From: Octopus sinensis
Taxonomy: Eukaryota
Direction of reading: 5' to 3'
Length of the DNA: 64,000 bases
Assembly: GCF_006345805.1 (NCBI RefSeq)
Contig: NC_042999.1
Coordinates: 113,150,001-113,214,000, forward strand
Positions 12,062 to 52,152 of the stretch are shown piece after piece (positions within the stretch are counted from its first letter, which is position 1; the number at the start of each line of letters is the position of its first letter). A model generated the notes under the pieces. That model saw only the letters and a list, made by a program, of their open reading frames with translations. It did not search any database and was not told the DNA's origin. Both the position numbers and the translations under genes were made by a program.

Positions 12062-12500
12062 ATATTATATAAATTAGAGACAAAACCACTATTATGCAAA
12101 TCAAACAAAGAAAGACTTAATCCAATACATAATTAATTTATATAATTTAAAATTCAACAATTATTAATATCCACTACGATCGTTTCATGTCTTCTTTTCA
12201 TCACATCTTTGAACATAGTTTAAACTCGCCAAGAATATTTGAAACCACCTGAAGAATGTCTACTACTCAAAGATGGGATGAAAAGAAGACATGAAACGAT
12301 CGTAGCGGATATTAATAATTGTTAAATTTTAAATTATATAAATTAATTTATGTATTGGATTAAGTCTTTCTTTGTTTGATTTGCATAATAGTGGTTTTGT
12401 CTCTAATTTATATAATATAATATTTTACTATAAATTGGATTCAATCCTAAATCTGATTTTTCCCTGTAAGTTTGGATTTATTCCCTAATATTTATTATAT
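12062..12500. mobile_element. Fold-back HHR element in (TA)n (PLE pseudo-LTR type)
   Basis: About 150-bp inverted arms 12062-12212 / 12267-12417, about 80-nt extension on the right, (TA)n on both flanks, HHR inside. Confidence 0.85.
12245..12308 (+). ncRNA. Minimal type I hammerhead ribozyme motif
   Basis: CCAC-CTGAAGA-ATGTCT..AGACAT-GAAA-C GATC G-TA-GCGG; palindromic stem III; the inverted arm shows GTGG, the perfect stem I partner. Confidence 0.8.
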
Positions 12501-12629
12501 ATTATATATATATATATATATATATATATATATATATAATATTATATATATATATATAATATATATATATATATATATATATATATATATATAATATTAT
12601 ATATATATATATATTATATATATATATAA

Positions 12630-12783
12630 TATTCTAACGTGTATAAAGAAACCCTTATTTTTGTGGATTAAAATTTGAAAAACGGTTTTGTAAGGAATTA
12701 TATTATCCATGTATAAGAAACTCCCATATTTTTTTACCTAATTTTTGACAAAAAAAGGTTCCTTATACACTTAAAATACGGTA
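12630..12783. mobile_element. pogo/Tc1-like MITE
   Basis: Right end TTATACACTTAAAATACGGTA (rc TACCGTATTTTAAGTGTATAA), degenerate left counterpart ATTCTAACGTGTATAA, TA context. Confidence 0.5.
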
Positions 12784-13310
12784 TATATATATATATATAT
12801 ATATTATATATATTATATATATTATATATATATATAATATATATATATATAATATATATATATATATATATATATATATATGTGTGTGTGTGTGTGTACA
12901 TAATAAGTTAAAAACATGATGAATGCACAAACGGAAACAGACGCCAAATCCTCATCAGCTATCGGCCAGAGGGTTAAACGCAATTTCGTGCCTTCAACGA
13001 TAATACTGTTCCCCTTCTGGTGGTGTGGCAGTAAGAAGCCATATATATATTTCGTTTTTGTATATGAAAAAAATAAACAAGTAAATGGATGGAAATCAAA
13101 CCGGTGACTATTATTGAATAATAAGGGACTAAAAGAGAATGACTCTCCTCAGACACAATTACACACACACACACACACACACCACACACACACACACACA
13201 CACACACCACACACACACACACACACACACTCACACACACATACACACACATACGCATATAGACACCATAGGGTTGGTGTAATGTGATTAATTTGTGGTT
13301 TTATAGCATA

Positions 13311-14198
13311 CAAATTCTTATCAATAAGTATACGGACTGTTGCTATAGAAACGAAGTTAAAGCACCCAGAGTGAAGCCGCTTGGCACAGATTGACCTTGA
13401 AATCTGCTGTGCATGTGCATTAAGTTTTAACGTTCTAGCTTACTTCCGCTGTTTACAATAGTGCTTGGAAGGAAGGCGTGTAGCGTGTGATCATCGCATT
13501 GACCATGACAGAGAAAGTTGTCATGGCGATACCTACTCAGAGGCAAAGTTGCAGAAATTTTATGGAGAGGAGTGTATGAACCGCACACAAGTGTATGAGT
13601 GGTTCAGATGTTTCCAAGATGGCCGAAAAATGTCGACATTGACGAACATTCTGGGAAACTCGCAACCTGCAGAAATGAGAAAAACTTCGCAGATGTGCGT
13701 GCAGCTGTGAGGGGAAATCGTCGAATCACTATCCGTGAGTTATCAGAGGATGTACGGATTAGTTATGGTTCAGTTCAGTCCATTATCATTGACGATTTGG
13801 TTATGAGACGCGTATCTGCCAAGCTTGTGCCAAAACTGCTTTCAGCTGACCAAAATAACATTCGACTTTCAGCTGCACAAGATCTCCTTGATTGTGTCGA
13901 GAACGATGAAATTTTTTTGAAAACTTTGCGTAGGTCTCTGAGCAAGTACTGCCACGCCTTTGGCAAAATTTGATGCATGTTCTCTGCTCAACTTTTTCTG
14001 TCATGGTCACTACGACGATCACACGCTACACACCTTCTTTCCAAGCACTGCTGTAAACAGCAGAAGTAAGCTAGAACGTTAAAACTTAGTGCGCATGCAC
14101 TGCAGAATTGAAAGTCAATCTGTGCCAAGCGGCTTTACTCTGGGTGCTTTAACTTCGTTACGATGGCAACACTCCAGATACTTATTGATCAGAACACG
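13311..14198 (+). mobile_element. Fold-back mariner: 3' half replaced by an inverted copy of the 5' end
   Basis: TA at 13309-10 and 14199-200; about 210-bp inverted arms; N-terminal transposase only (RTQVYEWF, RRITIREL, MRRVSAKLVPKLL); inverted MTEKVEQRTCIKFC start on the minus strand; no DDD domain. Confidence 0.9.
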
Positions 14199-14824
14199 TA
14201 GACATACACTTTAAATGTAAGCATATCAAAACTATTGTGAGCATTAAAGTACATAGTAATAAATTATATAGCACTAGCTACTTACACTCATATACCACTC
14301 TGCATTATACTAACAATCCAAAGAAAATGCGTCCTTGATAACCTGCTAGATATAGCAGTCGAATCTTCTTGAAATCATAGCCTATCATTTTAAAATATGC
14401 AGGATACTTTCCAGATACAGTATATCTGAAAGTGGTTGCGTTAGCTGGAATGTCTTTGATGATAAACCTGTTCAATTAGAAATGATCTCCGAACAAACAT
14501 CTCGATGATCATCATCTTGATTATCAATAATATTTATACGCCAACTTGTTCATTTTGTACGTACGTCCTGGGGTGTGTGTCACGCATACTTCAAAAGAAG
14601 AAGTGAGTGGCAAAGCGAGAGAGAGAGGAATACAGAGAGGAAGTAAGAGAGAAACAGAGAGAGAGAGAGAGAGACAGAGAGAGAGAGAGAGAGAGAAAGA
14701 GAGAGTAAGAGGGAAAAAGCGAAAGAGTGAAAGAAATAGTGAATGGTGACGGCGTTCGTTTTGTGTTTTTAAATGTTTTTAAATGTTTCAGAGTTTTGTC
14801 AACTGAGTGGACTGTGGCAAGGTG

Positions 14825-14930
14825 AAGTAGAGTACCTTACTCAAAAACACAGCGAGCCGCAGGGAATCGTACTCATGACTTTACGATCGTGGGCCGAATA
14901 GCTCTGATCTCTGAGCCACGCACCTTCACT
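14825..14930 (-). mobile_element. CORE-type SINE 5' fragment
   Basis: rc GGTGCGTGGCTCAGAG...CACGATCGTAAAGTCATGAG...TGTGTTTTTGAGTAAGG resembles the family B head. Confidence 0.65.
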
Positions 14931-49760: not shown

Positions 49761-50424
49761 GGATATGTATGTATTAAAGAAAGCAAAAAATAGAAACAAA
49801 AGGCTAAATGGATGTGTATGTGTATAAGAATTCAGCAATCAGTATTTTGGCTACAATGGTTGAAGGTTAAAAGTTCAATTATTTTTGATAATGGTTTGGT
49901 TGAGGTCTTTGTATTTATGTGTATGATTGCATGTATATGTATTTTATTTTGTGGGGAATTGTATACATACGCACACGCGTAAGCGGGTATGTCTGTGTGT
50001 ATAGTGGGAGAGAGAAAGATGGGGAGGTGAGATATAATTTTTTGTCTCTTGTTCGAAAGAGAAAATCTCTTTGCAATCGTACCCATTCAGGTTTTGGACA
50101 AGCACACCACACCACACACACACACACACACACACACACACACACACACACACACACACACACACACACGGGGCTATGGTAGGAGACATTTGGTGTCACA
50201 CACTGGTGCTAAATCCAGAAGCATATGGCTAAGAAACAAAGTTCTTGCCACACAGACAGGACTGTGTCTTAAAACAGAGCTTATAGAAAAAAGAAAATCG
50301 GTAAATATATATCCAGCTTCCCAAAAAAATTCTAATTAATAAAAAAATAATAAATAATAATAATAATGTGTTTTGAATGGCACAACAATGCAATATAATA
50401 ACTGATGTATTTTATCCATAGTCT

Positions 50425-50466
50425 GATATAATATTTCGGAATATAAAAATTCCTTCTTCAGATATC
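50425..50466 (-). ncRNA. Minimal hammerhead motif (left arm)
   Basis: rc GATAT-CTGAAGA-A-GGAA..TTCC-GAAA-TA-TT-ATATC. Confidence 0.7.
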
Positions 50467-50606
50467 TCTAGGGATTTATCGAGTCACTGCTACAATTGGT
50501 TTTCCAACGGATTTTCTCCTCTTTTTCCGGAAGTGTCTCTGCACTGGTCTTACGAGGCTCCTTCCAGAATTCTTCGTAAGAAGTGCGTGAGGGCGGCCAT
50601 ATCTCA

Positions 50607-50885
50607 AGTTCGCGTGTGTATAGACTACAATATAACAAATGCAACAAGTTCTATGTGGTTAGCACAAGACCGTTACACATTCGCATCAAAGAACATCTGA
50701 ACACAAGAGCTTCCTCCTTCAGAAAACATCTAGACAGATGCTGGAACACCAACAAAAGCGCAGTCACAATTGAGGCCAATGAAAGAAATTTGGGCAATCT
50801 AAGAATTAAGGAAACTATTCTCATAGGCAGACTAGGGCCTCAAATTAACAACAGGCTGGATCTTGGCAGTCAATATATTTTCTAG
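50607..50885 (+). pseudogene. PLE GIY-YIG endonuclease fragment
   Basis: VYRLQYNKCNKFYVVSTRPLHIRIKEHL...KHL...LRIKETILI...PQINNR; degenerate GIY-YIG with a CxxC-like insert. Confidence 0.85.
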
Positions 50886-51194
50886 CTACATCTAGATGTA
50901 TGTAGGTTCTTTTTTGGTGACATACTCACGTACTATTTTTTAAAAAAAAGAGAAAAGGAAGGGAAAAAGAAAAGGAAACTGCACGTATAATACATAACTT
51001 AGAAGCAGCGCTACGGATGTGCCAGCACACTCGAGCATGAGACATGGCCGCCGTCACGCACTTCTCACGAAGAATTCTGGAAGGAGCTTTGTGAGACCAG
51101 TGCAGAGACACTTCCGGGGGCGGGGAGGAGAGAACAAAACAACAAAACACCGTTGGAAAACCAATTGTAGCAATGACTCGATCAATTCCTGGGA

Positions 51195-51240
51195 ATATCT
51201 GAAGAAGGAATTTTTATATTGCGAAATATTATATCATATC
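51195..51240 (+). ncRNA. Minimal hammerhead motif (right arm, stem II mutated)
   Basis: ATAT-CTGAAGA-A-GGAA..TTGC-GAAATATTATATC. Confidence 0.55.
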
Positions 51241-52152
51241 AGACTATGGATAATTAAATTACATCAGTTATTATAGTCCATTGCTGTTATTATAGTGCAT
51301 TGTAGTGCCATTCAAAACACATTATTATTATTTATTATTCTTTACAAACAATACACAATGTTTCAAGCGAACTACAATATTCTTTAATTAATAATTATTA
51401 TTAATTTGCATTTTATGCACATCTCTTTTAGCGTAACAACATGCAACAAATAAAAGTTTCTTTGGGGTCTTGTTAATTTTTTTCTTCCGATTTTTGCCAG
51501 AATATTATTAAAACCCGTAGTTTAGATGCAATTTAAATTTATAGTTTAACAACACCCAACTCGATTTCGGTGAGAAATAATGTCTTTTCTTTGTTTTTAT
51601 TTTTTCTTGTACTATCAAGTAATCTCATCTAATATACCGCAAATTACTTTTTTCACCGAAATTGGAAGGTTTGTGTGTGTGTGTGTGTGTGTGTGTGGGG
51701 GGGGGGGGCTCGGAATCTCTCCCTCACCCCGGAGTTATTTTTTCCTCGTTTTTCTTTTTCGTGTGCTATTAACCAGTCTCGGCTCCTAGTATACGGCAAA
51801 GGACTTTTTCTCCTTTGCGGCGTATTAGGAGATCAGGACAGTGGCTGTGTTTTATACCTAATAACAGCTATTTCTAGCATACTAAACAACCACGTTGAGG
51901 ACCGGATATCTTTGGGTTTATTTAAAAGAGAGAAAAAATGCTTTACACAACGGATTCCGATATAATCGTAATCTACACTACCTGAGACGTATATGTGGAA
52001 AATTATCCATATTTCAGAAAGTTACCACACACACACACACACACACACACACACCACAAACACACACAACCCCCCCCCCACACACATATATATACACACA
52101 TAAATATATACATATAATATGTGTGTATATATATATATATATATATATACAT

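Follow-up and report, generated by a model that had tools for sequence, protein, structure and literature searches.

Short and long ends are nearly always paired in inverted, hammerhead-bearing Penelope-like insertions of the Octopus sinensis genome

Penelope-like elements (PLEs) that bear an endonuclease (EN+) leave a characteristic insertion unit, in which pseudo long terminal repeats (pLTRs) carry a hammerhead ribozyme (HHR), copies are 5'-truncated or form partial tandems, an inverted 5'-truncated copy lies adjacent, a tail of 30-40 bp is often found at one end only and (TA)n is preferred, nearly all Hydra families being inserted there (PMC8557442; PMC3846280, which notes that one of the inverted pLTRs bears the tail). 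With purified protein of PAc, a Poseidon element of the green anole, both target strands are nicked and extended in vitro, the reverse transcriptase (RT) starts at two internal sites that lie downstream of the HHR and bound the tail, the RNA is inserted uncleaved, HHR cleavage is dispensable and the protein is predicted to be a dimer (PMC11167929). The HHRs of PLEs are minimal, have an extra base after A9 and a palindromic stem III, occur in many dissimilar families per genome and in opposite-strand pairs 100-700 bp apart, and include a U3-A8 variant (PMC4209133), while natural U3-A8 and a U4C variant have also been described elsewhere (PMC3088659). Non-LTR (long terminal repeat) retrozymes are non-coding, low-GC tandem units of about 170-400 nt with one type I HHR each and strong self-pairing as predicted circles, and are proposed to depend on PLEs (PMC7229834; bioRxiv 10.64898/2026.07.22.740005). 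Here we describe eight elements, named E1 to E8 in order of position, from a 64,000-nt stretch (the window) of the 2.72-Gb, microsatellite-rich genome of Octopus sinensis (contig NC_042999.1, positions 113150001-113214000), in which an earlier note, made from the letters alone, had inferred a diverse guild of non-coding, ribozyme-processed RNAs inserted into (TA)n by PLE priming on both target strands.

The insertion unit, the two start sites with use of both strands and of uncleaved RNA, and the features of the minimal HHRs all appear to recur in these elements, as do the retrozyme features in E2, E6 and E7. Indeed the architecture, the hammerheads, the stagger of the ends, the inverted copies, the (TA)n bias and the opposite-strand HHR pairs are already published, and what is new is a counted, near-strict pairing rule for two types of end, the longer tails, the spliced-leader copies, a G3-C8 family of HHRs, and the finding that three units resembling retrozymes bear the fingerprint of PLEs. 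How PLEs make inverted, tailed insertions is treated as an open question in the PLE papers, and a near-strict rule turns the descriptive statement that a tail is often found at one end into a constraint testable in the existing in vitro system. Our literature searches returned no paper on cephalopod PLE hammerheads beyond PMC8557442, and the term twin priming was not found in the PLE literature searched; a natural G3-C8 core, or the rule by which the ends are paired, may already be on record in older papers on the Penelope tail.

Short and long ends of the inverted insertions

Six of the elements (E1, E2, E3, E4, E6 and E8; Table 1) are inverted with both sense 3' ends facing outward, just as had been claimed; the remaining two comprise a lone arm (E5) and a partial tandem in direct orientation (E7). 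Ends offset by roughly 70-105 nt had been noted in four of the six; the stagger holds, but it is found in all six and spans 51-101 nt. Genomic copies of seven families terminate at one or other of two constant positions, S (short) and L (long), which are 51-102 nt apart, and E5 is seen with a single end type, the E5 query having favoured that end. The staggered ends are the published PLE tail, the interval between two internal RT start sites (PMC11167929), although the tails found here are longer than the 30-40 bp described before (PMC8557442). A fold common to the tails was considered and rejected, a z below -3 being reached in only 2 of 7 cases.

The two ends are not combined freely. Among 92 de-duplicated outward pairs from the seven families, counted by BLAST, 72 join an S to an L end and three do not (two L+L and one S+S), the other 17 having one unclassified end, and one-ended tails, described before as frequent, can be restated as a near-strict pairing across families with different clade motifs. 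Four of the 17 unclassified ends are E1 ends called at r187 (r positions are relative to C3 of each hammerhead) and are probably S ends whose alignment has run on into TA-like sequence, while one of the L+L pairs proved to be a 43-nt artefact, resolved as L plus a tiny inverted S. The first query for E3 favoured S+L, and the count is hence also given without this family, in which case 52 of 54 classifiable pairs are S+L (p ~8e-14 against 0.5). Additional E3 pairs chosen by an internal motif were S+L in five of five cases, a sixth being without one end; micro-inversions at 5' junctions were of the opposite end type in 4 of 4; and among the non-coding units E2, E6 and E7, 21 of the 22 pairs that could be classified conform to it. 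Partner arms furthermore tend to carry the same alleles, discordance at diagnostic columns within as compared to between pairs being 0/56 vs 47% for E4, 1/10 vs 59% for E2 and 3/19 vs 50% for E1.

We consider it likely that the inverted insertions arise when two nicked, AT-rich target strands prime RT at S and L of the same uncleaved sense RNA. The endonuclease-bearing PLE protein would nick both strands of a (TA)n target, and the two RT subunits would occupy S and L, respectively, of a single sense RNA, each being primed by a different target strand. The L enzyme would then either stop near S or displace the S complementary DNA (cDNA), and the two cDNA 3' ends would be joined head to head, which in E3 would have happened repeatedly at a 6-nt self-complementary patch. 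Priming of one strand only would give a single S- or L-ended copy, and indeed either end is used by single-arm copies. The E2, E6 and E7 units would borrow the PLE protein in trans. The coupling of start sites, the single template and the strand displacement are what we infer here; priming on both target strands, as such, is the likely cause of the outward-facing arms, and on this point the earlier note is supported. In L1 twin priming a single RNA is likewise copied from primers on both target strands, and microhomology joins the resulting inversion. The present elements differ in that their two start sites are constant, with ~50-100 nt between them, and in that the arms overlap, the product thus being an inverted duplication.

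Several observations nevertheless weigh against such a coupled use of one RNA. Two exceptions to S+L are real, namely L299 (S+S) and L008 (L+L), and single-arm copies are mostly without an inverted partner; a micro-inversion hidden in every single-arm copy was considered and rejected, being present in 4 of 72 listed. Allele sharing is not seen in E6 (3/7 discordant vs 41%, one column), E7 and E8 are uninformative in this respect, and where sharing is found, it would also be expected if the two RNAs stemmed from a single source locus or if gene conversion had acted later. The copies come mostly from the top 30 matches per family, so that young subfamilies dominate. A parent protein for E2, E6 and E7 was not identified with the Hydra-type profile in ±1.5-kb flanks of 30 copies each. 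Finally, PMC11167929 saw no difference between the two strands in start site in vitro, and in the part of it covered here the pairing of ends in a single insertion is not dealt with; the S/L asymmetry, implied by the coupling in genomic pairs, is therefore our inference.

An alternative is that two RNAs are held together by the palindromic stem III as a double-hammerhead dimer, one RNA serving each target strand and the protein imposing S and L. This would account, with no need for strand displacement, for arms that often overlap by hundreds of template bases, and a self-complementary stem III, a feature proposed for dimeric HHRs (PMC4209133), is indeed retained in all eight families. Partner arms however agree at diagnostic alleles far above random arms, and Naiads, which are without canonical HHRs, still show tails and inversions (PMC8557442), and we find the explanation unlikely. 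For rotifer Penelopes it has been proposed that one strand primes itself or folds back, perhaps with an antisense template (PMC3846280), and this would suit some symmetric or palindromic junctions (L032, L099, L102), but either arm can be longer, and the short-end arm often exceeds the long-end arm while having no tail (L043, L079, window E6), which means that neither arm was copied from the other. Spliced E1 copies (see below) moreover need a sense template. Self-priming is accordingly given very little credence, and the fold-back forms that had been envisaged are unlikely because either arm can be longer.

Coding Penelope-like families

The E1, E3, E4, E5 and E8 families are collinear with RT/GIY-YIG open reading frames (ORFs) and are parts of coding EN+ PLEs. 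The PLE origin proposed in the earlier note is supported. No such ORF could be linked to E2, E6 and E7, and the note's description of the elements as non-coding applies to these three and fails for the five families represented by truncated or leader copies of coding PLEs. E4 and E8 have GIY-YIG remnants within the window itself and are therefore not non-coding. Longer copies exist in each case: L301 of E4 holds a 632-aa (amino acid) RT+GIY-YIG stretch; L309 and L310 of E8 contain RT and endonuclease, with an ORF that starts inside the tail, much as the tail of PAc overlaps the ORF start (PMC11167929); L305 is a full-length E5 copy, a 6.2-kb HHR-ORF-HHR unit, and E5 reads through into the ORF; and the long form of E3, of which a 30-nt junction motif has 388 exact genome matches, continues in L417, L418, L419 and L384, without loss of collinearity, into an RT/zinc-finger/GIY-YIG ORF of 722 aa. 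For E1 the ORF lies upstream and is collinear in L294 and L299, and in three loci (L056, L291 and L294) GT and an intron of 1.4 kb come after exon 1. The window copy of E1 is the exact GT-AG spliced form, exon 1 being joined precisely at the AG acceptor, and this is direct evidence of a sense RNA intermediate. The short non-coding copies of coding families, as in E1 and E3, are likely transcript-leader copies or short 3' pieces.

Domain assignments are weak to moderate where profiles match (Pfam RVT_1 at 1.7e-7 for E8 and 9e-4 for E5, GIY-YIG at 0.06 for E8), and Pfam gave no relevant match on the 632-aa E4 ORF and none on a 202-aa fragment in L293; the remaining RT/GIY-YIG calls stem from motifs read by eye and from 579 homologues of the E4 ORF. 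Judged by linker motifs rather than a tree, E1 and E4 would fit the Hydra clade, in that their ORFs combine a CxCX5C linker with CxxC and CxH motifs flanking the catalytic E and N, and that they are inserted in (TA)n. By the same kind of reasoning E3 and E5 would fit Neptune/Nematis, the finger preceding GIY-YIG being CX3CxxC in E3 and CX4CxxC in E5 as compared to CX2-5CxxC in those clades, and the cysteine linker of E8 is spaced differently, so that the motif leaves E8 unplaced as to clade.

Two candidate parents were rejected. A GIY-YIG fragment upstream of E1 in L292/L293 is not collinear with the E1 untranslated region (UTR) in L292, and an old Hydra-type RT-thumb/GIY-YIG fragment that directly adjoins E3 (window 24520-25264, +) belongs to a different family, E3's own ORF being of another type. 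It was also observed that 5' ends cluster just upstream of the HHR. In E3 they lie at ~r-20 to -24 (L019-L030, L392-L416), and the start that they share is frequently preceded by a G. This spot could be taken either for a branch point with its acceptor or for a start of the initiator type, in which case the G might derive from a cap; no consistent splice donor was found among the E3 loci examined. In E1 the grouped 5' ends of L055, L058, L292, L295, L297 and L298 are at r-12/-13, which is exactly the intron acceptor. L293 in addition contains, at 3-1280 (+), a 426-aa open frame of repeated cysteine-rich modules that is probably a host exon.

Non-coding tandem units

In E2, E6 and E7 the sequence past the long end returns to the element's own start, which gives closed units of 559, 470 and 548 nt with one type I HHR each. 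For E2, 92 of 116 genome matches to the motif that follows the end lead to an exact HHR motif ~175 nt later, and of nine exceptions sampled, eight arrive likewise at the HHR, though with a mutated core, and one is cut short. E2 forms arrays of 5 or more units, while E6 and E7 occur as partial tandems or dimers. As circles the three units (E2, E6, E7) fold with minimum free energies better than shuffled sequence (z of -5.7, -5.1 and -4.3; 25 shuffles, one copy each). The Hydra-type profile, a search insensitive to other PLE clades, found no match in E2 or E6 loci (±1.5-kb flanks, 30 copies each); near one E7 locus, however, there is a fragment of a Hydra-type endonuclease, ~0.5 kb upstream and in the same orientation, so that E7 is not unequivocally non-coding. 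The E2 unit is covered by contigs from four sequencing runs presumed to be RNA, of which three include the end-to-start joint, but this joint is also present in genomic tandems and the contigs are thus no evidence either way on expression.

From these features E2, E6 and E7 may be said to resemble retrozymes. They differ from those described in being larger (470-559 nt vs about 170-400 nt) and in carrying PLE-style HHRs, PLE tails, inversions and (TA)n insertion; the word tail was not found in the main text of bioRxiv 10.64898/2026.07.22.740005. The common fingerprint supports the proposed movement of retrozyme-like RNAs by PLE proteins, and does so by insertion anatomy and not by phylogeny. 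A bolder proposal, which we hold to be possible but on balance doubtful, is that the three are circular-RNA retrozymes with PLE-style HHRs that hijack a Penelope RT/endonuclease dimer, and that the S+L rule reveals an asymmetric two-RT complex in several PLE clades. If true, strict pairing of a short and a long end in (TA)n would betray, at the level of the insertion, that animal retrozymes move by PLE twin priming.

It may also be asked whether HHR-cleaved, possibly circular, non-coding RNAs served as templates of all eight elements, the earlier note having suggested ribozyme-processed RNAs. The closed tandem units, the return of E2 to an exact or mutated HHR and the favourable circular folds would all agree with this, as would the window copy of E2, the long arm of which begins 3 nt from the cut site. 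Five families are however pieces of coding PLEs, so that the idea could at most apply to E2, E6 and E7, and 5' ends are not in excess at the ribozyme cut site, where 3 of 103 downstream-of-core ends fall within 5 nt as compared to 4.9 expected. Many arms run across the cut site intact, the processing that is visible, in E1, is spliceosomal, and HHR mutants insert normally in vitro (PMC11167929). Cleaved templates are consequently an improbable explanation of the eight elements as a set, and the description of the RNAs as ribozyme-processed is not upheld.

Two further observations were made on E2. In older copies (L424, L426, L430) stem II opens with A rather than T, and this A would pair with the closing U. 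The unit also holds an antisense hammerhead-like relic, at window 20890 (+) and 21592 (-), which by its G at the cut position and its want of a stem II is probably inactive.

Hammerheads, target sites and neighbouring sequence

Ten minimal type I HHRs in the window pass a strict descriptor comprising the core, a stem II of at least 3 bp, a palindromic stem III and stem I (Table 1), as compared to 0-1 in each of 20 dinucleotide shuffles of the window, and a looser descriptor finds 9 against a shuffle mean of 1.7. The eleventh HHR, +51199, lies in the diverged partner arm of -50461 and is degraded, its stem II being broken, and the count of eleven in eight elements given earlier is thereby confirmed. 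So is the dissimilarity of the elements, BLAST among the eight 3' regions giving matches of 16-20 nt only. In a genome sample of eighty evenly spaced 10-kb stretches (799.8 kb in total) there are 27 HHR motifs vs 3-6 in each of 3 shuffles. The sample density of ~29 per Mb would correspond to roughly 80,000 intact minimal HHRs genome-wide, which is a rough extrapolation from 800 kb. The high density that had been stressed is real in so far as the window exceeds the sample ~5-fold, but the window was chosen for its density. First-look genome candidates number 322-3550 per family, these being candidates and not copy numbers. An Rfam scan (E<=10) gave no hammerhead among the matches listed (150 of 273), nearly all of which are microRNA-family models on microsatellites.

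That the elements are ends of DNA transposons resembling miniature inverted-repeat transposable elements, or assembly artefacts, with HHRs arising by chance, might be thought from the E4 arms, which in the window are 100% complementary across 391 nt, and from the richness of the genome in simple repeats. This reading is already refuted: the shuffles yield next to no motifs, the arms may be of any length, whereas their 3' ends stay at two constant but different positions, and the RT/GIY-YIG ORFs, together with an intron that has been excised exactly, indicate that the intermediates were RNA.

Two families depart from the usual core. G3-C8 is present in 66 of 69 aligned arms of E3, some loci having been fetched twice, and U4C in 30 of 30 for E5; such family-wide variants distinguish these elements from the minimal HHRs of PMC4209133, in the covered part of which a natural G3-C8 goes unmentioned, and E3 makes a natural G3-C8 core family available for assay. 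Mismatches in stem I of the window copies occur mostly where the window letter differs from the commonest letter of the family. U3-A8 and U4C cores are also seen in other HHR families of the random sample (L381:-9394, L383:-5475; L330, L370), and all three covarying 3-8 pairs thus occur in this genome.

Six elements (E1, E2, E4, E5, E6 and E7) abut (TA)n, as had been reported, and the enrichment extends beyond the window, a TA run following 18 of 26 family 3' ends in an unbiased genome sample as compared to 4% of random positions. A ninth short piece, at window 8638-8714, resembles the short end of E1 and adjoins (TA)n.

Table 1. Hammerhead-bearing elements of the window. Right ends of E1, E4, E6 and E8 are corrected and approximate, as are the end offsets; PLE types are by linker motifs. 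All hammerheads given except +51199 pass the strict descriptor.
Feature	Position	Arrangement or strand	Hammerhead	End offset (nt)	Description
E1	12068..12497	inverted insertion in (TA)n		85	spliced leader of Hydra-type PLE
E1 arms	~12068-12212 (-); ~12221-12497 (+)	short-end; long-end			exon junction 12236/12237
E1 HHR	12245..12308	+	+12249		minimal type I; C3 at 12249, GUA cut site, palindromic stem III
E2	20486..21895	inverted insertion in (TA)n		101	559-nt non-coding tandem unit
E2 arms	20486-21332 (-); 21330-21890 (+)	long-end, ~1.5 units; short-end	-20819; +21661		
E3	24264..24476	inverted	+24351	56	leader piece of Neptune/Nematis-type PLE, G3-C8 HHR
E3 arms	~24264-24343 (-); ~24331-24476 (+)	long-end tail joined to short-end arm			
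E4	34837..37680	inverted insertion in (TA)n	-34952; +37494	70	young Hydra-type PLE insertion
E4 arms	(-); (+)	short-end; long-end			long-end arm with GIY-YIG domain end 35347-35562 and long microsatellite-rich UTR
E5	41382..42027	-			single 5'-truncated Neptune-type PLE arm, internal deletion, ends in (TA)n
E5 HHR		-	-41504		U4C core
E6	42080..42475	inverted insertion in (TA)n		87	470-nt non-coding tandem unit
E6 arms	(-); (+)	short-end; long-end	-42262		HHR in short-end arm
E7	48926..49534	-	-49170		direct partial tandem of 548-nt non-coding unit, short end adjoins (TA)n
E8	50363..51385	inverted		51	older PLE insertion
E8 short-end arm		-	-50461		
E8 long-end arm		+	+51199 (degraded)		GIY-YIG remnant 50580-50885

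The window holds further repeats. Two internally deleted elements are found at 13315-14194, with 206-nt inverted ends, and at ~37850-38480, and their transposase text is presumably mariner-like. Decayed coding pieces of non-LTR retrotransposons lie at ~29140-31940 (-) and 55250-56900 (+), the second matching RVT_1 at 3.8e-11, and a 19-nt minisatellite of 21 copies occupies 44803-45202.

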